A stretch of 64,000 nucleotides of DNA from a virus: positions 1 through 64,000 of the IMG/VR virus record IMGVR_UViG_3300048032_000927; one strand, given 5' to 3'. The notes beneath the pieces were generated by a model, which saw only the letters and a program-made list of their open reading frames with translations, made no database searches and was not told the DNA's origin. Each line of letters begins with the position of its first letter. Position 1 is the stretch's first letter. The position numbers were made by a program, and so were the translations under genes. Shown piece by piece: positions 12,083 through 24,379 of the stretch.

Positions 12083-15000
12083 ATGGCAGGAATTAGGGCA
12101 GATGTTTCATTAAATGTAAACACAGCGAATGTTAAGCGTAGTCTTGACAAGGCTACTAATGAAATTAATAAAGTTGTCGGCAAGATAAGCGGCAAACCAG
12201 TAAGCTTTAATGTTAACGGAAAAAGCTTTACTCAGCCCCTGGGTAGGATTACAGCCTCCGCCAATGAGTTCACAAAATCGCTTGAGGCATCAAATGCTCG
12301 TGTTATCGCTTTCGGCGCTTCTGTTGGTATAATAAATGGAGTAAGTGATGCATTCAGGAATCTCGTACTCGAAACAATAAGGTTTGAAAAAGTACTAAGC
12401 GATATCAATGTAGTGCTAGGACTAAGCAACGAATCTATTCAGAGATTCGGTGAAGGCATCTTTGATGTCGCAATGAACACCGCTCAATCATTTAATGTGG
12501 CGGCTGATGCAGCCCTCGAGTTTTCTAGGCAAGGTCTAAGCACGGAAGAAGTGCTAAAAAGAACCAACGACGCATTAATACTTACCAGATTGACTAGTTT
12601 AAATGCAGCTGATGCGGTAGCGGGGCTTACGGCTGCCGTCAATGCGTTTGGGGACGCTGGATTGACCACAACCGATATTATTGATAAATTAGCTGCTGTA
12701 GACGTAAAATTTGCTGTTAGCTCCGAAGATTTGATTAATGGCTTACAAAGAGCTGGTGCTGTTGCCATAGATGCAGGAGTGGAGTTGGATAGCTTGGTTG
12801 GCTTAGTGGCCGCACTCCAACAAACAACGGCTCGTGGTGGTGCTGTTATTGGTAATAGTTTGAAGACCATATTTACAAGGATACAGCGGCCAGAATCGAT
12901 CCGGCAAATTGAGGATCTTGGAGTTGCTGTAAGAAACATCCAGGGCGAAGTTTTATCTGCAGATAAAATACTTTTGAATATGGCAAAGAGTTTCAATACT
13001 CTTACTCAAGCTCAACAATCTAATGTTGTGCAATTTTCCGCAGGTATATTTCAGGCTAACGTCTTTAGATCTATTCTTAGAGATTTAGCTAAAGAGCAAA
13101 GCTTGCATGCGCAAGCCACCGAAGTTTCCGCTAACGCATCCGGAGAGGCCGCTAAAAAGAATGAAATCCTGAATCAAACACTTGCAGCATTAGCATCTCA
13201 AGCTGGAACGGGAATACGAGAATTAGCAGGCATTATAGGCGAGCTTGCAGTAAAGCCTGAAATTGGAGGATTTTTAGAGTTTTTAGTTGGCCAAATTGAA
13301 GGCATCAAAAAGATGCTTGGAGGAGGAGAAGATGAAGGAAGCGCTTTCGCTAAAGGGTTAGTCCGGGGAATAGGGAATGTCTTAACTGGTCCTGCTGCGA
13401 TAGCTTTTGGAGCAGTGTTCATAAAGATGTTCCTGAATATAGCTAAGTTTGCCAGCACTTCACTAAAAGATGTTCTTGGTATTGTTAGCCAGAAAGATAG
13501 AATCAGGCAAATGGAGGAGTCAATCGTTCAAGCTTTATCAGCCAATAAAAACCTTCAGGAATCCTTAAATAATCTAGAGGGAGATAGGCTTGCTCAAGAG
13601 AAGTTCATTCTTGGAATTATTGAGGCACAAACAAGCGCCATGAGAGAGCAACAATTGCTGGCCAGTCGTTTAGCAAAACCTTTAATGAGAAAAGGCGTAA
13701 CCCCCGACTTGACAATAAAAGCTTCCGGGGGTTTAATACCTGAATCTGTAAAAAGCAAAGAAAAGCAAGGCGCAAGAAAGGGTGGTTATGCCCCAGGGTC
13801 AATAGACTCAATGAACATTCCGGGGCTTGGCCCAGTTGTTTATAATAAAGCGGAAACCGTTAAACAATTTCCTGGTATGAAGCAGCCTGCGATTATGCCT
13901 CCAAAACAAAGCAGGGCTGGAGGTGCTTACAAAAGCACTTTTAAAGAAAAACATGGCTTCGATCCTTACGCAAGCCATGGTTTTGTTCCTAATTTCGCGA
14001 TGAAAAGAGGGTCTACTCTCGTCATGGACAAAGCGAAGTTAAAAGTTTTTGGAACAGATGTAGATATAGGACGTGCGGTTAATAAAAAATATCAAGAAAT
14101 ACAAGAACATTTTCAAGCAAAAATTCCAATAAATATTGAAGCTGGACTGCAGCAGATAATAACCTCATCAACTAAAGATAAAAAACAGCCAACAGGCAGA
14201 GAGTCTTTATTCGAAAGTTTCAGCGCCTTATCGGGAGCAGGAATAAAATCAATAGAGCGACCTTTTGATATACGAAACATTGGTGCCGCTAAGTCAAGAG
14301 GCTCAAAACCAAAAGGACTCTCTCCATCTGAATTTAGTGAAAAGAAGGTAATGGGTCTACTCAAGAGAGAGCAAAGCGTTGATAAGGTAGATAAAAAAGA
14401 AGGTTATAGGCTAACGCATGATCCACAAACAAATAAAGGTCTTCCTGATTATCCTGTAGATATCATCTCATACGGCGAAAATTACCCAACCCACGAAGTT
14501 AAGAGTGGTAGTTTCAATCCAGCTAATCTCATATTCAAAAGCTTACGAATGGCTTCTGATCGAGAGTTGCCAAACTGGATGCAACAAAATAAAATAAGCG
14601 GCGGCAAAAAACTACAAGAAAGAAAACTTAAAAAAGCTGAAACCTTATCAAAGAGATTAGATTTATACGATCCCAAGCAAAAGAAAAGTGCCAAAGAAGA
14701 AGGGTTTGAATTTAGTCAAGATTTTGCGGATCAATGGGGATTAAGCCAGGGGTTTGTTCCTAATTTCAAAAAAGATTGGCGACAATTATACTCAAATACG
14801 TTAACAGGATACAAGCAGGGAAAAATAAAATCTCGAGAAGATCTTATGGGTTATTTAGGGGTTAGCCTAAGCGGCCTATCTCAACTAGTTAGCGCTTCAA
14901 GTAATTCAAATAATAAAGCGATCAGGGAACAGTTGTCCGAAGTTCAACTTGATAAATTAAGGGAGATTAATGCATCTGTTTCTGATAAGAACCAGAAAGA

Positions 15001-18000
15001 CTGGAGGAGCCTGTACTCGACTACAATATCAGCCCGAAATCAGGGAAAGATAAATTCCAGAGAAGAACTAGCGAAATCCCTTGGTGTAAGTGCAGTCGGT
15101 CTATCTCAACTAGTTAGCGCTTCAAGTAATTCAAATAATAAAGCGATCAGGGAACAGTTGTCCGAAGTTCAACTTGATAAATTAAGGGAGATAAGTAATT
15201 CTCTCTTAACTGATAAATCAGGAACATTATCCCAAACAAGATTAAAAGGTGATTTATTTGAGAAAGCTATTTCAATTCTTTCTGGGCAACCTTTCAAAAA
15301 AGGCGCAGACGCATTAGACTTTTCAAGAGCACGGGCAAGACCTGTATTAATGGATTCAAAAATTCGCGAACAAATAGATTTAGGCCAAGATGTTCGATAT
15401 GGCGATGCAGAGTCAGGAAGCGGGCACAAAGTCCATATCATGAGGGATAAAGTTATTCGCGAGTTGGAAGAAGGCGGCCAATTATATAATCTCATCCAAA
15501 AAAATGGCGATATTAATTTACCAGGAAAAACGTTCACAGATATTGTTGCTAACGGATCCGACGCTAAACCAAAAGAATCATCTACCATAAAATTAGGTGA
15601 GTTATTAAATACTGGTCGAACAACAGCTGGAACAAAAAATGCGATAGAAAAATCTTTAACAAAAAAATACAAAGGTAAAATAACTCCTGCGCAAAGACAA
15701 AAAGAATACCAAAGAAATGTTAAGTTCGATTATTATGTTGATGATGTTAATTTGGAAAACCTAAAGGTTGACAAAAGAACCAAGCTAGGAAAAGAATTGG
15801 GAGATATAGATAAACAATTTCTTGCAGTATCCGCTCAGACACAGAGTGACGGATTGGTTCCAAATTTCGCATCTCTTAGATCACCTATTAAATTTGATGT
15901 TGGCGATGAAAAAAGCTACGGAAAGTCCTATGTTGCAAGAACAGCGAAATCGGGGAAACTTTTTCTACTAGAGCAAGGCCACAAACATTTCTCTGAATAT
16001 ATGGAGTCTCAGGGTAAACCTACGCCAAAAATGACTAGAGGTGTTATTGGGGGCAGAGAAGGATATTGGGTGAACCAGCACGAAGATGATATACTAGAAT
16101 GGAGTAAAAAGCCAAACATAGAATACATTCGAAAAGAAAAAGAGGTTAAAGAGCAAAGAGAGCAGGAATCAAAAGACTATATGCAGAAGCTTAAGTATGG
16201 ATCTTTTGAGCCTATAAAAAATGCAATGCCATTAAATTTCGGGGGAGATTCGGTCAGATACCAAAGAACATCTGGTTTCGGAAAAGAGCTTATAAATAAA
16301 CTTGGGCCAGACTATAAATACATTTCAGTAAACACTAGAAAAGTAGAAGATTACGCTAAAGCTAATAATATAACCAAGCAACTTCGTTCTGGTTCTACGG
16401 TACCCAATTCCAAATCAGCCTTGCTTAAAATGGTTGACTTACCTAAGTCTAAAATTCAAGAGCTAGATTTTGTTAGGCCAAGAAAAAGAACTGAAGACGA
16501 AAAAAAAGAGGAACTAAGAGAAATTAGTCCAACAAGCCCTATCAAATGGGATGTTCGTCAAAATCCGGGAACAAAAAAGAAAGATTACTCTCTTAAGGGT
16601 AGCGACGACACCTTTAGGCACTTTAGTAATTTCTTAGAAAGAAAAGGTGTTCCCAAGAGAAGTATTCAAAATATTCAAAACGCTATACAGCAGAAAAGAG
16701 AAACTATAAAAGGCCTCGAAGAAGGAGCAAGAAAAAAAAGTCAATCCAGATCAGATAACACTGCATTTCATGAAGCAGCACTAGCGTCTGAAAATATAGA
16801 AAAAAACTTTAGTATACCAACTGATAAATTATACATTAAAAACTTATCTAATTTAATCAAAGAATTTAATAGTACAGTTTATACTGGTTTTAGTGATGGA
16901 TATGTTCCTGATTATGGTGCTGTAGAAATGAATAAAGGATATGTGCCTAATTTTATTGGTTTTAATGTACCGAAGAAGTCGCATCAATTAATTGAAACAT
17001 TTAATCAAATAACTGAAAAGAATAAACTTATTCCTACCGTTGATTCTTTGATGGAGCAAGGCGTGGATCGAGAGACTGCAATTCAGCAAACAAAAGACGA
17101 TCAATTTGGACAAAAGAAATCGATGTTTAAGATTTTGAACACGATGAAGTCCGAAGGTGTTAAGCAGCTATTTTTTGGTCAAGGCGGTAAGATATTTCCT
17201 CATCAATCTGCTGGCACTATACCATTTACAATCGAGAAGATTAAGGATGTAATTAATAACACTGGATACAAGACTGATTTCAAAGCGGATGGATTTGTGC
17301 CCAACTATGCAGTTACTTTATCAGATGATAATTATTATAGCCAGAAAAACGTACAACATGGTATAACTCAACTTTATAAAAAGAGTGGTGGACGACAAAA
17401 ATTAGCCCCGAAAGAATTAGAGTTTGCGTCTGAAAGATATATATCGGCAGTTCAAGACAGTGGAAAAACTTATCCTGGCGGAAACTTTAACGTCGGTGGT
17501 AAGAAGTTCAACTTTAATGAAGTCAGTATGTCATTAATGAAGCATGGTCAGTTTTATCAACCCAAAGAAGGTGAAGCTGTAGATTTATCGGAAGGGTTTG
17601 CTGGAGGCTATGTTCCTAATTTTGCCGACTCTCAAAAGATCCGAAATGGAGCTATTTACCACAGCAAAACAAACAACAAAGCTGTTAGAGTAAAAAGAGC
17701 AGATCAAGCAGAGCGTATTGCATACATTAAGCATCACACTCAGGATCACATGTTTGACCCCGAAGTTCCGTTTTCTGATTTAACGCCTGCCACTAAAAAA
17801 CAAGTTCAGGAATATCTTGGTAGGTCACCAACTAAAGCTAAGGGTTTCGTTCCTAATTTTGCCGACACTACTCTTTATAGAGGTCAGGGCCGCCCAACTT
17901 TGGACACGCCAGACATACTGAGTAATCTTCCGAGTTTTAGTGGCGCTGAAACGCCAGAAGATGTTGTCGGTATTATTCAAAATTTTGTTAAATCTCATGT

Positions 18001-21000
18001 CAGCGGCGAATTGTCGGGACAAAGAAATAAACCTAATCCCGCCAAAAAAGCATCTGGTGCAGTTTCTTTTTCTACAAATGATACAATAGCTAGAGAATTT
18101 TCCGGACTAGGCACAATTAGAAGAAAAGCCACAAATCCAGACGGTAAAGTCTTTGAAAAGAAGGTTCCTCAGAAAAATATATTCAATAAGCGAAAATTAC
18201 TTAAAATTTTAAGTAGAGGCGCCGACCTCGAGAATAATGTTTATCCGAAGGTACAGGAATTTAAGCAGGCAATTTCATCAGGGGCGATACAAAACTGGGC
18301 CCAGGAAAACGGCGGAATTTTCTTAAACGTTTCAGGCGCATATAATGACAAAGAAGCTTACGGAAAAATGGGCAAGATGGAATATGGAAGATTTGAGCAT
18401 AAATTCTTGGGCAAAAGAATGCCTTCAATTGTACCTCCGAAAGAAATTGGTTTTAATAAAAATAAAACATTTGAAATCACCCCAAGAGAAGAAGAGGTTA
18501 TGCAGGTATTTGATGATGGCCTTGTTCCTAACTTCGCAGACCCTCAAAAGATTCGAAATGGCGCCATATATAATAGTAAAACCAATAACAAAGCCGTAAG
18601 AGTTGTTCGGGCAAATCAAGCAGAAAGAATAGCGTATATCAAGCATCATTCTCAGGATCACATGTTTGACCCCGAAGTTCCGTTTTCCGATCTAACGCCC
18701 GCGACAAAGAAACAAGTTCAGGAATATTTAGGCAAGAAACCTAAGGCTAAAGCAAAAGGCTTTGTTCCTAATTATGCATTGACAGGAAAAGAATATGCTA
18801 AGTTTTCAGTTAGTTTGTCTGATTTTGTAAGAAATAATTCTATTACGCCGCCGATAAAATCTCTAAGTAGCCGTGAAATATTTAAAATTCCCCGCAGAAA
18901 TGCAGAGGTTGCAGAACAAACTATTCAAAATATCAGGCAATTTATTTCATCTAATGAATTTGGGGATCTTGACGAAGATATCAGAAGACAGGTCAAGAAA
19001 GATTATAATAGAATTGCACCGAGAGGATTATCAAACCCATTTAGACCATTCGCCAAATATTCTCAAAAAGAATTTAGCGGAAGCATGGATGTAGGGCGCC
19101 CAACATTAAGAAGGGCTGTTGCTAAGGGATTTGTTCCTAATTTCGCAAGCCCGCTAAAAGAAGCTATAAAAAGAGAAAAAGCTGCAGGGGTTCCTGTTTC
19201 AAGTATTCGCGTAGAAAAAAGCCCGCAACTTAAAAGCTCCAAAAATCCAATGGGATTAGCGGTTACTAACACCAGGGATGAGCCTCTTGGTGTTGGCCAA
19301 GGGATTAGACGCGCAAGAAGTATGGGTATTGACCCTAAAAAACATGGGGCCTCAAAAGGGTTAGTGCCTAACTTTGCGGCTGGCATAAAGAATATACAAT
19401 TCAAAGAAGGCGTTCCAGATGCTGTAAAAAAAGCATACAATGAAAGCGCAAAGCATTTAAATAGTTTTAATAAAAACATCGAAACAGCTAGTGATGCATC
19501 CGGCAAAAGGGCTGAAGCAGATAGTAACGCTAGTAATAAAACCGATGATTTTTCAAGCGGAGGCTTGATGAAGCTTTTTGTTTTTCAGTCATTACTGAGT
19601 ACGGCTAATGGGTTCTTGCAGGAATTTGCAGAGAGTGGCGGTGAAACGGCTAAAACATTTGCTCAAATTGGTCAAGCTGGATCTAATTTAATTTCAACTT
19701 TACTGACTACGAAGGAGGTCGGCAACCAATTGATGGAAATGGCTAACATCAAGCCTTCTCAATCTGTGGGGCTAGGTGGGCTAATCCGAGGGGGTGGAGC
19801 TAGGCGTGGGGCAACTAAAGAAATAGCAGGAGGCCTTAAAGCAGCCATAGATTTCAAGGGGGTAAAAAACGCAACTGGAGCAATTTCTAGTTTTGGAAAA
19901 GGATTGTCAATGGCAGGCAAAGGTTTACTGAGATTCACACCAATAGTTGGACAATTACTTCTTTTGGGTACCGGATTAAACGAGGTAATGAAAATGATTA
20001 CGGGTAAGGGTTTGTTTGATTTACTGAAAAGTGACGCAGATAAAGCTGCTGATAAATTAAAAGAATTGGCTGAGGCTGCAGATAAGACAGAAAACGCTCT
20101 TAATGGAGCAAATAAACTACAGAGCACTCAAGAGAAAATCACAGAATTAAAAATTTTAGGTGACTCAAGAAGCCTCAAGCAAGAAAAAGAACTCTGGTCT
20201 TTAAAAACACAAGAAATAAAAAACAGAAATGAGTTAAAGAAATCTATATCAGAAGTTGATACGTCGTATATTCAAAACGAAAGTTTAATACAAAAAATCA
20301 ATCAAGTCAAGGCAGGGGAAATAACAAAAACTGAAGACGTTATTAAGGTTTTAACAGAATACTCTTTCGCCCAACAAGGTCAGATGGGAATCCAAGCTAG
20401 TTCCGAAAGATTCTTTAAGAGTATAGAAGACGTAAAAAGAACTCAAAAAGAAAAGATTGTTACGCCAAAAATGCTTAGCGGAATTCAAGTTGGAGAAACG
20501 GTTGAAAATACAGGTAGAAATATTTTATCAGAAGAATTTAAAAATAAAATAAATGAATCCGCCGCAGATATCGCACAGTCAATTTTAATGCTTAGCCCTA
20601 AACAGCAAGAGTCTGCGAAAAAATCTCTAAAAGAAGGGGAAGTCGGAAAAATTAGAGGGCTGGAAGGATTTGATGAATTAGGTAAAGTAGAGAAAAAATT
20701 TATATCTAGAAAAATATTAGAGTTTACAAAGAAAAAAGGCGCAGAAGGAGAAAAAAATGATGAGGAAGCTAAAGCAGAGGCTGGAGCAAGAGATGAACTG
20801 ATCAAAAGACTATTCTTAATTAAGCAAGGCAGGCAACAAGAAGCTTTAAATCTAAAATTAAGCAACAAGCGGAATGAATTATACCGCAGCCAAAACGCTT
20901 TTCTTCATGGTATACTCTCCGAGTATGAAGGCATTAACGTTGCCGCTAAAATTGAAGCCGATGCAGCCAGAAAAACCGCAAAAATAAGATCTGATTATAA

Positions 21001-24000
21001 CGAAAAACTGTTAGGCGTTAATCAAAAATTAATTCAAGGCACAGAAGGGATACTTGAAGGCGTGATTGGCGAAGGAGGCGCAAGCGCAAGTAGAGTCTTT
21101 GGTGCGGCTGGTGACCCTAATTCTAGCCCCGTACAATTCACTGAAAAGAGCGGTAAAGATTTAGGGCTAAATCAGGAGAAAGTTAAATTAGCTAATAAAA
21201 TTCTACAAGAATCCTCAAAGCAGGCAAGTGCTGCCTCTCAATCAAGGAAATTTTTCGAGGAATTAAATAAAGCAAAAGATGAAGAGTTATACATTGCTAC
21301 GGCTAAGTTGTTTTTTGATCAAGAAAACTTGCAAATCAGTCAAAAGGAGAAAAACAAACTTCAAGAGCTTATTAATACTCGAGATAAGACGCGAGCAATA
21401 CTTGAGCAAGACAACGAAATAGCTTTAGAAAATGTAAATCAAGAAAGAACAAGAAGTTTAATTTCAAAGAAAACAACAGAGGGTGCAATTGCATTGCAAG
21501 AAATTCTAAGTCAAGGAATACCTTATGCTCAAACAGCTATAACTGCAATGGAAGGTAATGCTGCCACGCTCAAGGTTTTAAATAATTTCAGAGGCGCTGA
21601 AATAGAAACAATACTGCAAAGTGCAGCATTACAAGCTGAAGCCACACAATTGCAAAAAGAAAAAAATAGAAATGACCTTATAGCTGTTACTAAGTCTGCC
21701 GCGCAGGCTAAAGCTCAAGCCGAAGTATTTTCCAAAACAGAACAATATGCTCAAATTATTCAAAAAAGACTTGAGCAGGAGATATCTCAATCCGAGATAG
21801 CTGCAAGAGATGCTCAATTAAAAAATGAATTCTATAATATTGAAAGTAATAGGCTTGCTTTAGTTAAAAGTCAATTACAATCTGAAATAGATAATTTAAA
21901 TACTGATAACTTAATTAAGCAATCTAGATTGGAGTTGTTAACTCAGTATGGAAAAATTAATGAATTGGTGGCTGGGCAGATTCAACAAAGCAGATTGCAA
22001 GCGACTACTGATTTAGCTACATCTATTGAAACGGCGCAACAAACAGGAACACCTGAGTCAATGGTTGATGTAGCCGAAAAGATGTCTGCCCTTAATAGAG
22101 AGATGAACACGGGCAGTAGAGCTATGGACGCTCTTAGAGAAAGGCTCGCAGAGGCGCAAGTCAATGCCGCGAACCTCGGGGCAGATTTAGTAAACATTGG
22201 ATTCGATCAAGCAAAGAGTGGATTAAAGCAATTATTTAAAGATATTGGAAGTGGTGCAAAGAGCGCAAGTGAGGCGTGGGAAAGCTTCGGACTGAATATA
22301 GCAGACAGCCTTCTCGATAGAATCATGGAGCATAATATAGACAAAATGATGTCTAATCTATCAGTTGCTTTTACTGGGCAGGATTTACTGGCAGACGCAA
22401 ATCAGAGGCTTGCTGCTACCATACCAACACTTAAGACATCAAATGATACGCTCAACACAACAACTGGAGCATTAAACACAAGCATGGGAACCTTGAATAC
22501 ATCTGTTCAAGGATTAACCACAGCGATAGGAAGCATCAACTTAAATCCTGGTCAGCCTACAGTCGATGTAACTATTCCATCAACTCCAGCTCAAGGTCCA
22601 GCCGCATCCGCCCCGGTAGAAAAGTTTTTGGGAGGCAAAATACAAGCGTTCAATAAAGGAGGCTTTGTTAAAGGTGAACCGGGGATTGACAGGGTTCCAG
22701 CTATGCTGACAGCAGGCGAGTATGTTTTAAACAAAGAACAAGTAAACGAAGTTCAAAAACAAGGGCCATCAACGACTGTATCGAAACCAGATCAGTTTTT
22801 CATGGAAAGCCCGAAGCAAATTTCGAAAAACATTGCCCCGAAAAAGACATTCGAAGATAATATCACAGGTAAGCTCAAACTATTCAAGGGTGGCGTAGTC
22901 CAAATGTTTCAGGATGGCGGTTTAGCTAATAAAAAAATAGACAAGGGAGTTTTTGATGTAGAGAAAAGAATTATTGATAAAAAGCAGGTTCAAGAAATAC
23001 AAAATAAAGAGGTTTTAAATGTCAAGCAAAGCCCAGTACAAGAACTATCCATTAACACTGCAAAGATATCAAATATGGTTTCACCTGAAAAAGCTTTAAA
23101 GGGCAGTAAGGAACTCGGGGATATTAAAAAATTTTACGGCGGGAAAATACAAAAATTTGAAGAAGGAGGAATCGCTAAAAGGGTTAAAGCTGGAGCCAAA
23201 GGAGCTGCACAATTTGCAGTAATGACTGGGGTTAGTAGTGTTCTATCAAAAAAGTTAAATAAAAAGCAAGATAATCCACCACCAAAATTTGATATGCGTA
23301 AGCTTGAGAACTTGGATTTAGGTTCTGATGTTAATATCAAAAGAGGCGACCCAAGATTAAGTGCTAGATTTATTGCGGAAGATCCAGTGATGCAGGAGTA
23401 CAGGGATCATTTGCTTGAACTAGCTACTTATAGGGCTCAAAAAACCAACGAAAAATTTAGAGAAAAACAAGGTACTCTTGCTTCTGTTATGGGAGCGGTC
23501 ATGAGTTTTGCTGTCTCACAATTAGTTTCCGCCGCCGCTAAACCATTGCAAAAAAGCATACAAAAAGGTAAAAACTTTATGGGTAAAACCATGGGTCAGC
23601 ATAAAGATGCCTACAAGAATGCAATGAGTATACCTGGCGGTAAAGACTTAAATTACAGCCAAGTTAGTAAATCAATAAAATCAGGAAAGCCTATCGATAT
23701 TGGTGGAAAAGAATATACCTATCAAAATGGATCATGGCTTAATCCAGTAAAGAAACAAGGCGGAGGCTCGATACCAGCAATGCTTACAGCAGGGGAAGGC
23801 TTCGTCCCGGCTCCTATTGCAAGAAGGATTGGCTACGGTAATTTAAATAAAATGAACCAAACGGGATCCCTTCCTATAATCAATGGACCAGCAGGCATTG
23901 ATAAGGTTGGACCAGTTGGATTAAATGAAGGAGATTTTATAATCAAAAAATCATCAACGGATAAACTACTAAGAGAGAATCCGAATATGATGAAATTCGC

Positions 24001-24379
24001 ATTACAAAACCCAGAAGGTTTCAAGAAGGGAGAAAGAGGATACTATGAAGGTGGGGTAGTAGGTACAGCGACACGCGCTGCGCCTGTTGCATCAAAAACA
24101 TACAAACCTCAATCTGCGCCAGAGCAAAGAAACCGCATAAGTTCATTGATTGAAGAAGTAGATCAAACTAAAGCTCAAGAAAGCGCACAATCCACAAGTA
24201 ATTCAGTAACTAATAATATCAATGTTAATGTAAGCATTGATAAATCTGGCAATGAGTCAGTATCAACAGAACAAACGGGATCTAGCCTGGAGCAGGAAAA
24301 AGATCTAAGCATGAAGATCAAGGCAAAAGTTCTGGAAGTTATCAGGGATGAAAAGAGAATTGGCGGAGAGCTTAGTTAA
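12083..24379 (+). CDS. Tail tape measure protein (4098 aa) with central modular cargo region
   Basis: N-terminal TP901-type tape-measure core (AADAALEFSRQG, IIDKLAAVD, TARGGAVIGNSLKTIFTRI) and long coiled coils. C-terminal FxxGG and PAMLTAGE motifs are typical of tape measures. Located between the tube and tail-tip genes. Confidence 0.9.
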   Translation: MAGIRADVSLNVNTANVKRSLDKATNEINKVVGKISGKPVSFNVNGKSFTQPLGRITASANEFTKSLEASNARVIAFGASVGIINGVSDAFRNLVLETIRFEKVLSDINVVLGLSNESIQRFGEGIFDVAMNTAQSFNVAADAALEFSRQGLSTEEVLKRTNDALILTRLTSLNAADAVAGLTAAVNAFGDAGLTTTDIIDKLAAVDVKFAVSSEDLINGLQRAGAVAIDAGVELDSLVGLVAALQQTTARGGAVIGNSLKTIFTRIQRPESIRQIEDLGVAVRNIQGEVLSADKILLNMAKSFNTLTQAQQSNVVQFSAGIFQANVFRSILRDLAKEQSLHAQATEVSANASGEAAKKNEILNQTLAALASQAGTGIRELAGIIGELAVKPEIGGFLEFLVGQIEGIKKMLGGGEDEGSAFAKGLVRGIGNVLTGPAAIAFGAVFIKMFLNIAKFASTSLKDVLGIVSQKDRIRQMEESIVQALSANKNLQESLNNLEGDRLAQEKFILGIIEAQTSAMREQQLLASRLAKPLMRKGVTPDLTIKASGGLIPESVKSKEKQGARKGGYAPGSIDSMNIPGLGPVVYNKAETVKQFPGMKQPAIMPPKQSRAGGAYKSTFKEKHGFDPYASHGFVPNFAMKRGSTLVMDKAKLKVFGTDVDIGRAVNKKYQEIQEHFQAKIPINIEAGLQQIITSSTKDKKQPTGRESLFESFSALSGAGIKSIERPFDIRNIGAAKSRGSKPKGLSPSEFSEKKVMGLLKREQSVDKVDKKEGYRLTHDPQTNKGLPDYPVDIISYGENYPTHEVKSGSFNPANLIFKSLRMASDRELPNWMQQNKISGGKKLQERKLKKAETLSKRLDLYDPKQKKSAKEEGFEFSQDFADQWGLSQGFVPNFKKDWRQLYSNTLTGYKQGKIKSREDLMGYLGVSLSGLSQLVSASSNSNNKAIREQLSEVQLDKLREINASVSDKNQKDWRSLYSTTISARNQGKINSREELAKSLGVSAVGLSQLVSASSNSNNKAIREQLSEVQLDKLREISNSLLTDKSGTLSQTRLKGDLFEKAISILSGQPFKKGADALDFSRARARPVLMDSKIREQIDLGQDVRYGDAESGSGHKVHIMRDKVIRELEEGGQLYNLIQKNGDINLPGKTFTDIVANGSDAKPKESSTIKLGELLNTGRTTAGTKNAIEKSLTKKYKGKITPAQRQKEYQRNVKFDYYVDDVNLENLKVDKRTKLGKELGDIDKQFLAVSAQTQSDGLVPNFASLRSPIKFDVGDEKSYGKSYVARTAKSGKLFLLEQGHKHFSEYMESQGKPTPKMTRGVIGGREGYWVNQHEDDILEWSKKPNIEYIRKEKEVKEQREQESKDYMQKLKYGSFEPIKNAMPLNFGGDSVRYQRTSGFGKELINKLGPDYKYISVNTRKVEDYAKANNITKQLRSGSTVPNSKSALLKMVDLPKSKIQELDFVRPRKRTEDEKKEELREISPTSPIKWDVRQNPGTKKKDYSLKGSDDTFRHFSNFLERKGVPKRSIQNIQNAIQQKRETIKGLEEGARKKSQSRSDNTAFHEAALASENIEKNFSIPTDKLYIKNLSNLIKEFNSTVYTGFSDGYVPDYGAVEMNKGYVPNFIGFNVPKKSHQLIETFNQITEKNKLIPTVDSLMEQGVDRETAIQQTKDDQFGQKKSMFKILNTMKSEGVKQLFFGQGGKIFPHQSAGTIPFTIEKIKDVINNTGYKTDFKADGFVPNYAVTLSDDNYYSQKNVQHGITQLYKKSGGRQKLAPKELEFASERYISAVQDSGKTYPGGNFNVGGKKFNFNEVSMSLMKHGQFYQPKEGEAVDLSEGFAGGYVPNFADSQKIRNGAIYHSKTNNKAVRVKRADQAERIAYIKHHTQDHMFDPEVPFSDLTPATKKQVQEYLGRSPTKAKGFVPNFADTTLYRGQGRPTLDTPDILSNLPSFSGAETPEDVVGIIQNFVKSHVSGELSGQRNKPNPAKKASGAVSFSTNDTIAREFSGLGTIRRKATNPDGKVFEKKVPQKNIFNKRKLLKILSRGADLENNVYPKVQEFKQAISSGAIQNWAQENGGIFLNVSGAYNDKEAYGKMGKMEYGRFEHKFLGKRMPSIVPPKEIGFNKNKTFEITPREEEVMQVFDDGLVPNFADPQKIRNGAIYNSKTNNKAVRVVRANQAERIAYIKHHSQDHMFDPEVPFSDLTPATKKQVQEYLGKKPKAKAKGFVPNYALTGKEYAKFSVSLSDFVRNNSITPPIKSLSSREIFKIPRRNAEVAEQTIQNIRQFISSNEFGDLDEDIRRQVKKDYNRIAPRGLSNPFRPFAKYSQKEFSGSMDVGRPTLRRAVAKGFVPNFASPLKEAIKREKAAGVPVSSIRVEKSPQLKSSKNPMGLAVTNTRDEPLGVGQGIRRARSMGIDPKKHGASKGLVPNFAAGIKNIQFKEGVPDAVKKAYNESAKHLNSFNKNIETASDASGKRAEADSNASNKTDDFSSGGLMKLFVFQSLLSTANGFLQEFAESGGETAKTFAQIGQAGSNLISTLLTTKEVGNQLMEMANIKPSQSVGLGGLIRGGGARRGATKEIAGGLKAAIDFKGVKNATGAISSFGKGLSMAGKGLLRFTPIVGQLLLLGTGLNEVMKMITGKGLFDLLKSDADKAADKLKELAEAADKTENALNGANKLQSTQEKITELKILGDSRSLKQEKELWSLKTQEIKNRNELKKSISEVDTSYIQNESLIQKINQVKAGEITKTEDVIKVLTEYSFAQQGQMGIQASSERFFKSIEDVKRTQKEKIVTPKMLSGIQVGETVENTGRNILSEEFKNKINESAADIAQSILMLSPKQQESAKKSLKEGEVGKIRGLEGFDELGKVEKKFISRKILEFTKKKGAEGEKNDEEAKAEAGARDELIKRLFLIKQGRQQEALNLKLSNKRNELYRSQNAFLHGILSEYEGINVAAKIEADAARKTAKIRSDYNEKLLGVNQKLIQGTEGILEGVIGEGGASASRVFGAAGDPNSSPVQFTEKSGKDLGLNQEKVKLANKILQESSKQASAASQSRKFFEELNKAKDEELYIATAKLFFDQENLQISQKEKNKLQELINTRDKTRAILEQDNEIALENVNQERTRSLISKKTTEGAIALQEILSQGIPYAQTAITAMEGNAATLKVLNNFRGAEIETILQSAALQAEATQLQKEKNRNDLIAVTKSAAQAKAQAEVFSKTEQYAQIIQKRLEQEISQSEIAARDAQLKNEFYNIESNRLALVKSQLQSEIDNLNTDNLIKQSRLELLTQYGKINELVAGQIQQSRLQATTDLATSIETAQQTGTPESMVDVAEKMSALNREMNTGSRAMDALRERLAEAQVNAANLGADLVNIGFDQAKSGLKQLFKDIGSGAKSASEAWESFGLNIADSLLDRIMEHNIDKMMSNLSVAFTGQDLLADANQRLAATIPTLKTSNDTLNTTTGALNTSMGTLNTSVQGLTTAIGSINLNPGQPTVDVTIPSTPAQGPAASAPVEKFLGGKIQAFNKGGFVKGEPGIDRVPAMLTAGEYVLNKEQVNEVQKQGPSTTVSKPDQFFMESPKQISKNIAPKKTFEDNITGKLKLFKGGVVQMFQDGGLANKKIDKGVFDVEKRIIDKKQVQEIQNKEVLNVKQSPVQELSINTAKISNMVSPEKALKGSKELGDIKKFYGGKIQKFEEGGIAKRVKAGAKGAAQFAVMTGVSSVLSKKLNKKQDNPPPKFDMRKLENLDLGSDVNIKRGDPRLSARFIAEDPVMQEYRDHLLELATYRAQKTNEKFREKQGTLASVMGAVMSFAVSQLVSAAAKPLQKSIQKGKNFMGKTMGQHKDAYKNAMSIPGGKDLNYSQVSKSIKSGKPIDIGGKEYTYQNGSWLNPVKKQGGGSIPAMLTAGEGFVPAPIARRIGYGNLNKMNQTGSLPIINGPAGIDKVGPVGLNEGDFIIKKSSTDKLLRENPNMMKFALQNPEGFKKGERGYYEGGVVGTATRAAPVASKTYKPQSAPEQRNRISSLIEEVDQTKAQESAQSTSNSVTNNINVNVSIDKSGNESVSTEQTGSSLEQEKDLSMKIKAKVLEVIRDEKRIGGELS
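14876..15192 (+). repeat. Perfect 92-bp direct repeat (14876-14967 and 15101-15192) within a 225-bp tandem duplication
   Basis: CTATCTCAACTAGTTAGC...AAATTAAGGGAGAT occurs twice with identical sequence. It encodes the second half of a duplicated HTH-like unit. Confidence 0.95.
17624..18775 (+). repeat. Duplicated ~79-aa module (about 17624-17842 and 18536-18757)
   Basis: ADSQKIRNGAIYHSKTNNKAVRV...DPEVPFSDLTPATKKQVQEYLG versus ADPQKIRNGAIYNSKTNNKAVRV...DPEVPFSDLTPATKKQVQEYLG. Confidence 0.95.

Follow-up and report, generated by a model that had tools for sequence, protein, structure and literature searches.

The first 64 kb of a linear 115-kb IMG/VR virus record (IMGVR_UViG_3300048032_000927, estimated completeness ~82%), a stretch of 64,000 nt from an uncultured phage that is termed the window below, contain one very long open reading frame (ORF) whose predicted product is a giant tape measure protein (TMP), and the subject of this analysis is a 219 amino acid (aa) module embedded within that protein. 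To judge from its modelled structure, the module very probably has the fold of an ADP-ribosyltransferase (ART) with an intact active site of the R-S-E type (arginine, serine, glutamate, the last as part of an E-x-E motif), and it is likely to be an active enzyme. The fuller reading, that it is a catalytically competent R-S-E mono-ART which serves as an exchangeable cassette of the TMP and would be delivered with it at infection, is one towards which the balance tips only modestly, and it is weighed below against its competitors.

The preliminary description of this DNA had placed the module inside a TMP, and the carrier bears this out. The PhageMin_Tail domain of Pfam (PF10145) matches TMP residues 121-316 with an E value of 9.4e-24, several PHROG TMP families match residues 20-450 (best E 8e-48), and in tblastn searches the first 632 residues match annotated TMPs in 194 phage records at ~26% identity, those of Lactococcus phage 949 and of SPbeta-like phages included. 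By these sequence matches the 4,098-aa ORF is a bona fide tail tape measure protein of the PhageMin_Tail/TP901 type, and its flanks are structural too, a cement protein being encoded upstream and a minor tail protein (phrog_14) downstream. PF10145 is the sole domain of the whole protein that the Pfam and PHROG searches recognize.

Downstream of that core comes an array of modules set apart from each other by copies of a short motif, with the ART module lying between the eighth and ninth copies, 225 aa from motif start to motif start (Table 1). Translation and motif mapping show that the preliminary description was exact in its coordinates for the unit, for the arginine codon (17879), for S-F-S-T (18065-18076) and for E-x-E (18488-18496), as also in the 225-aa spacing. 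Across 136 occurrences of the boundary motif in 15 related TMPs, two near-duplicates being left out, its logo is [SA]-x-G-[LFY]-[VI]-P-N-[FY]-A, in which G and P are invariant and N is present in 130 of the 136; a G[FL]VPNF-type motif delimits modules in the TMPs of all the relatives. The candidate roles considered for it are those of cleavage site, strand-donating linker and recombination joint.

Table 1. Features of the giant TMP gene and of its ART-fold module, in window coordinates
Feature	Position	Strand	Basis
Giant TMP ORF, carrier of the ART module	12083..24379	+	one open frame, 12,297 nt, 4,098 aa
Module array, aa 633-2431	13979..19375	+	delimited by 12 G[FLY]VP[ND][FY] motifs; the ART unit is one module
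74-aa repeat module copy 1, aa 1848-1920	17624..17842	+	clusters with aa 2152-2225; flanks the ART module
Upstream boundary motif GFVPNF, aa 1921-1926	17843..17860	+	motif map; unstructured, low confidence in model
ART-fold module, aa 1927-2145, 219 aa	17861..18517	+	AlphaFold2 model, structural matches, dN/dS
Predicted catalytic Arg R7 (aa 1933) in L-Y-R-G-Q, end of strand 1	17879..17881	+	conservation, model, register
S-F-S-T (S69-F70-S71-T72, aa 1995-1998), strand 2, then helix with conserved A..F	18065..18076	+	conservation, model
Helical insertion, aa 2036-2076	18188..18310	+	model helices 122-129, 141-152, 154-162, pLDDT ~95
E-E-E (E210-E211-E212, aa 2136-2138), read as E-x-E, start of last strand	18488..18496	+	outer Glu invariant; model
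Downstream boundary motif GLVPNF, aa 2146-2151	18518..18535	+	motif map; 7 residues past the E-x-E strand; model pLDDT <50
74-aa repeat module copy 2, aa 2152-2225	18536..18757	+	second flank of the ART module

The only relatives of the module that were found, about 35 of them, are all in other giant phage TMPs. Among 1.84 billion representative proteins phmmer gave 16 matches, 11 of them below 1e-10; the stronger ones sit within very long proteins or fragments of such proteins, and the boundary motif is also present in 12 of the 16. A word-indexed search added six more, five of which are annotated with PF10145. A pattern scan of IMG/VR yielded 16 loci with the module (15 distinct contigs, L015 and L016 sharing the same TMP), always within a giant ORF, of 3,444 to >6,505 aa where complete. 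Neighbouring modules differ from phage to phage and the ART module therefore behaves as a cassette; with the order and content of modules also differing between relatives, the array is a shuffled one. No standalone version was met in a profile search of the proteins of 113-384 aa among 5.8 billion clustered proteins, which returned just a 136-aa fragment of the same module, and there is no relative in 185,579 prokaryote species genomes, hence neither a prophage copy nor a clue to the host. With tblastn the unit matches nothing in 50,697 cultured-phage records, and a capsid-size ORF at 1420-2526 has no match in the phage collection, so that no cultured relative is at hand.

An alignment of 19 sequences, with 36-97% identity to the query, has 42 conserved columns out of 219, 25 invariant and 17 nearly so. 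In it S69, T72, E210 and E212 (numbered from the start of the unit) are invariant, R7 is nearly invariant, position 71 is S or T, and E212 is followed by V, I or L. In a domain-only alignment of 15 sequences all six of R7, S69, S71, T72, E210 and E212 are invariant, and the arginine is retained in every relative that covers its segment; even the most distant members have L-K-R-G-Q or I-Q-R-G-Q, S-[YW]-T-T and E-x-E-[VIL]. The conserved columns, together with pairwise ratios of nonsynonymous to synonymous substitution rates (dN/dS) of 0.06-0.29 for the module, mark it as a real domain under purifying selection, and few of its positions are more constrained than the putative catalytic residues. 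Beyond the triad H46, S52-G53, K105-N106, Y128-P129, G151-G152, N156 and N162-D163 are invariant as well. As an observation apart, the extra invariant residues in unit 46-160 (window 17996-18340) suggest NAD- or substrate-binding elements that are particular to this family.

The order [YF]-R, S-x-S, [QE]-x-E, which the preliminary description had taken to point to an ART, is present and conserved, but the loose triad on its own counts for little: [YF]R ... S.[ST] ... [EQ].E turns up in 364 of 5,000 shuffles of the unit (7%) and twice more elsewhere in the TMP. None of 5,000 shuffles has the extended pattern [YF]RG ... S[FYW][ST]T ... E.E[VIL], which within the TMP is confined to the ART module.

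An AlphaFold2 model of the module, with the 19-row alignment of aa 1915-2160 as input (12-15 flanking residues on each side, model numbering being that of the unit plus 12), has a predicted local distance difference test (pLDDT) score of 77.9 and a predicted template modelling (pTM) score of 0.78, the pLDDT values of the blocks at the R, S and E sites being 81, 91 and 88. R19 sits in a strand formed by model residues 14-21; the strand 80-83 holds S81 and S83, with T84 just after it and a helix (86-93) next; residues 122-162 make up a confident helical insertion; and the strand 224-229 starts at E224, the second Glu, E222 falling in the loop that precedes it. Confidence is low at both boundary motifs. 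When the model was compared, independently of Foldseek, with 48,161 representative PDB chains, 46 reached Z >= 2 and ~43 of these belong to the ART superfamily: TreX, TccC3, Scabin, PltA, pertussis toxin, LT, CARDS, PARPs, Arr, pierisin, DT, ParT, DarT, ExoS and ART2.2, the list also covering RES/ParT/MbcT and Tpt1. The best of that search was TreX, at Z 6.1 with a root-mean-square deviation (rmsd) of 3.2 Å over 103 of 128 residues; re-alignment of the Foldseek list gave Z 6.2 for TreTu and 4.8 for cholera toxin A1. The alignments start by pairing model residue 13 with TreX residue 9, model residue 13 with cholera toxin residue 1 and model residue 12 with pertussis toxin residue 2, and if strand 1 is ungapped R19 falls on the catalytic arginines R15 of TreX, R7 of cholera toxin and R9 of pertussis toxin.

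The Z scores being modest, it is on the near-exclusive presence of ARTs in the match list, on the residue register and on conservation that the fold call is founded. The ART identity proposed in the preliminary description accordingly stands in the form of a predicted ART fold in which R, S-x-S-T and E-x-E occupy strands of the R-S-E type, but it has come away without a sequence-profile link to any known ART family, ModA and ModB included. That R, S and E would come together in an NAD-binding cleft, the refuting condition set in the preliminary description, is something with which topology and alignment register are consistent. Neighbours in a protein language model, to which sequence only was supplied, include the named clusters NarE, Arr, Scabin-like and Pertussis_S1 at 0.83-0.84, to be read as a lead. 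An H-Y-E reading of the site (H46, Y128 and E212, all conserved) was set aside, the R-G being in strand-1 register with R-S-E toxins and the best structural matches being R-S-E enzymes. Separately, the ART-fold matches at Z 2.7 take in residues 1418-1594 of chain B of PDB 9k3a, a podophage ejection protein from the pre-ejectosome of cyanophage A4; the paper describing 9k3a has 0 occurrences of ADP-ribosylation, and the match hints weakly that an ejection protein packaged in the head may have an ART-like domain.

TMPs fill the tail lumen and exit ahead of the DNA (PMC7824862). What we infer for the module, namely that it is an active, arginine-specific enzyme with a target, that it is released at the motifs and that it enters the cytoplasm, would take the following course. 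Since the TMP leaves the virion before the DNA, it would bring a few copies of the enzyme into the host; the module would travel through the tail unfolded or extended, regain its fold in the cytoplasm with its supply of NAD+, and modify a host protein in the first moments of infection, as a functional counterpart of the head-packaged Alt of phage T4. NAD+ being cytoplasmic, a TMP-borne ART is sensible only if it reaches the cytoplasm or acts in the producing cell. The TMP has 0 cysteines in its 4,098 aa, where ~48 would be expected from the 1.17% (167 of 14,287 residues) of the window's 32 other ORFs; in 17 related TMPs there are 9 over some 72,000 residues, and no cysteine occurs in any of the 19 ART modules checked. 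That array and carrier are both nearly free of cysteine fits a chain which crosses an oxidising compartment unfolded and refolds afterwards. A bolder version, offered tentatively and with the balance somewhat against it, has the TMP as an injected effector polyprotein, a recombining array of up to about a dozen cysteine-free cassettes that would pass through the tail lumen before the DNA and be released or activated at the motifs, the ART among them modifying a host protein before phage gene expression; just as tentatively, such a protein might be regarded as the tail-lumen counterpart of the polymorphic toxin and polyvalent protein systems.

Several results weigh against the reading of the module as a delivered, active ART. 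From S to the second Glu there are 141 residues, far more than in known enzymes (51 in cholera toxin), and from T72 to E210 there are 137, for part of which the helical insertion accounts. In TreX the former distance is 48 residues and the chain continues for ~34 residues past E-x-E, with two strands (PMC11606950), whereas the module ends 7 residues after its E-x-E and its core may be incomplete. The structural alignments extend to model residues 239-240, through the downstream GLVPNF (model 232-238), where pLDDT is <50, and it may be that this boundary motif, or else the inserted strands, could complete the ART sheet. No Pfam, PHROG or NCBIfam ART family matches the unit or the whole TMP, and for 15 family members there is no Pfam or NCBIfam ART match even at E <= 10, the curated families in question being for example PF01129, PF03496, PF01375, PF02917, PF22596 and PF21641; PF03496 was not found in the 115-kb record. 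Among PDB sequences both phmmer and the family profile give only chance matches (E about 1). With profiles that are shallow, the effective number of sequences (Neff) being 1.9-2.6, the hhalign probability is 0.7% for T4 ModB and 0.2% for ModA (family PF26816, both sequences taken from AF158101) and 7.8% for a small ModB family; the segments it aligns, of anecdotal value, set L-Y-R-G against Q-L-Y-R-G of ModB and S-F-S-T...A..F-S against the S motifs of ModA and ModB. Foldseek, put forward in the preliminary description as a check on the fold, gave nothing at E <= 1e-3 versus PDB and BFVD, although its weak top list of ParT, PltA, pertussis toxin, cholera toxin and CARDS toxin is dominated by ARTs. 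The structural Z is at most 6.2, and a Z of <8 can, according to the tool, reflect a common arrangement. Lastly, it is not obvious how a tail lumen would hold three or more copies of a folded 25-kDa domain.

An active ART-fold enzyme that is not delivered would escape that last difficulty. The ORF would on such an account be a polyprotein whose modules are excised at G[LF][VI]PNF in the producing cell, to act late or on phage proteins, with only the TMP core entering the tail. The twelve boundary motifs, regularly formed as they are, resemble processing sites, globular folded modules in general suit a tail lumen poorly, and the range of sizes of the relatives' TMPs would mean very different tail lengths if every residue counted. 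Were every motif cut, however, the TMP core at the N-terminus would also be parted from the C-terminal half; the cargo array is as poor in cysteine as the rest of the TMP, which is what would be expected if they travel together; and neither the 5.8 billion clustered proteins nor the 185,579 prokaryote genomes provided a standalone module. Undelivered action is thus, in our estimate, unlikely, and delivery with the TMP is preferred to it.

As to what a delivered enzyme would do, the dyad is informative: E-x-E rather than Q-x-E typifies the arginine-specific transferases TreX, Tre1 and cholera toxin (PMC11606950), and because it is invariant here the R-S-E ART is, by analogy, probably arginine-specific. 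Were the fold to serve another chemistry or target, as a NAD+ glycohydrolase or as an ART for DNA, RNA or a small molecule, there would be no lack of precedents, the neighbours including the DNA-targeting Scabin and pierisin, Arr (rifampin), the NAD-consuming RES/ParT/MbcT toxins and Tpt1, and ARTs of similar fold delivered through type VI secretion (T6SS) having rRNA and tRNA as targets (PMC11606950; PMC13617354). The many extra invariant residues, from H46 and S52-G53 through K105-N106 and Y128-P129 to G151-G152 and N156, are without an assigned role and leave room for it. The E-x-E tells against this, as do the top structural matches, TreX and TreTu, which are R-S-E transferases, the former modifying a protein, FtsZ (PMC11606950); we give such an alternative chemistry little weight, though not a negligible one, beside an arginine-specific protein mono-ART.

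For the module to be a catalytically dead relic of the ART fold, retained in the TMP for spacing, for added length or for binding, one would point to a core that seems truncated past E-x-E, to the very long insertion between S and E-x-E and to the want of a profile match to active families; yet R, S/T and both Glu are invariant down to 36% identity under the dN/dS range given above, and pseudoenzymes usually lose their catalytic residues, all of which makes the relic improbable. Quite improbable also is that there is no ART at all, the triad being coincidental and the model having drifted to a common alpha/beta arrangement: the loose triad is indeed frequent in shuffles, the best Z of ~6 is below 8 and a model from the single sequence has a pLDDT of 40 and is unusable, but some 43 of the 46 chains come from one superfamily, the catalytic arginine is in register in three independent alignments, the extended motif is absent from the shuffles and the language-model neighbours, which owe nothing to structure, list ART families too.

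The active, TMP-delivered mono-ART being the reading modestly favoured, the company of the module in the array may be described. Here the module lies between two 74-aa repeats, both of which contain H-H-x-Q-D-H, an arrangement found only in this TMP and in that of a 91%-identical relative, L003. The most widely shared cassette is a different one, a 71-aa module at aa 2355-2425 (19145-19357) of which there are 16 copies in 13 of 17 TMPs; it contains N-P-x-G-L-A-V-T-N-T-R-D-E-P, usually comes last in the array, ahead of the C-terminal half, and has no family match. Strongly hydrophobic 19-residue stretches (Kyte-Doolittle >= 1.6) occur in the TMP only at aa 227-245, which falls within the PF10145 core, and at aa 429-451 (13367-13435) and aa 3799-3817 (23477-23533), which bracket the cargo array and are candidate membrane-inserting segments.

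The closest structures are those of TreX, TreTu and Tre1, antibacterial R-S-E ARTs delivered by T6SS Rhs proteins (PDB 8S2M, 8S2N; PMC11606950), with Z 6.1-6.2 and an rmsd of 2.9-3.2 Å over 103-104 of 128-130 residues. The modelled module shares the topology of TreX, where R15 lies at the end of beta1, S54 within beta2 and E100/E102 where beta5 starts (PMC11606950), and as with TreX and TreTu a compact toxin domain would be the cargo of a large injected protein; TreX likewise has no cysteine, and is thought to need TrxA for refolding after transport (PMC11606950). Identity to TreX and TreTu, however, is 14-16% with no profile link, and the module is ~90 residues longer from S to E-x-E and is without the C-terminal strands that come after E-x-E. 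Its carrier is a phage TMP instead of an Rhs protein of a T6SS, and in the 115-kb record no immunity gene, macro domain or ADP-ribosylhydrolase (ARH) was found, a small non-enzymatic immunity protein being possible. With cholera toxin A1, LT and pertussis toxin S1 (ARTC) there is a fold match at Z 4.1-4.8 over 104-124 residues, with the N-terminal arginine in register and the same order of R, S-T-S and E-x-E, but identity is 15-21%, PF01375 and PF02917 do not match, and a phage protein from an environmental metagenome has nothing of the A-B toxin architecture.

Head-packaged phage ARTs are well described, in T4 Alt, MuF-VIP2 fusions, polyvalent proteins and N4-ART (PMC9503650, PMC5512222, PMC7302621). 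Alt, ModA and ModB of T4 belong to the R-S-E ARTs of phages and modify host proteins as infection begins, as proposed here for the module, and the virion carries Alt (PMC9503650). Alt, however, is a head protein in its own right that leaves with the DNA, in contrast to an internal segment of the ruler protein of the tail. Nearer in architecture are the MuF-VIP2 fusions and polyvalent proteins, where effectors, mostly ARTs, are fused to a virion structural protein in shuffled multi-domain arrangements and are predicted to be injected with the DNA (PMC7302621, PMC5512222, PMC9503650). There the anchors are of the head (MuF, portal) and the ARTs recognizable as Alt/VIP2, N4-ART or PolyVal types, whereas here the anchor is a TMP (PF10145) and the ART a sequence orphan. 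Sle1-type effectors of actinobacterial contractile injection systems have a TMP-like scaffold, within a tail-like tube, to which exchangeable functional or toxin domains are joined (PMC13277306, PMC11126660); these differ in being cargo of bacterial systems with a single functional domain, and the abstract mentions neither an ART nor a motif-delimited array. The word 'tape' is absent from a survey of viral NAD-ADPr (PMC9503650) and 'tape measure' from the polyvalent-protein paper, and full-text literature searches on tape measures in connection with ADP-ribosyltransferases, VIP2 or toxin domains returned no TMP-borne ART. What appears to be new, if the model is a good guide, is a virion-borne phage ART on a new carrier, the TMP, from a branch of the R-S-E clade that is a sequence orphan, carries a large insertion and has a shortened C-terminal end.

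Delivery of an ART by way of the TMP would be a route not described for phage ARTs in the literature searched. With Pfam, PHROGs and NCBIfam all missing the module, such ARTs are undercounted in phage surveys, and the architecture of motif-bounded, shuffled cassettes is a handle for finding further injected effectors. If the TMP does carry an active ART, the tail lumen would be a second route for pre-made enzymes of host takeover or anti-defence, and TMP length would reflect cargo as well as the length of the tail.

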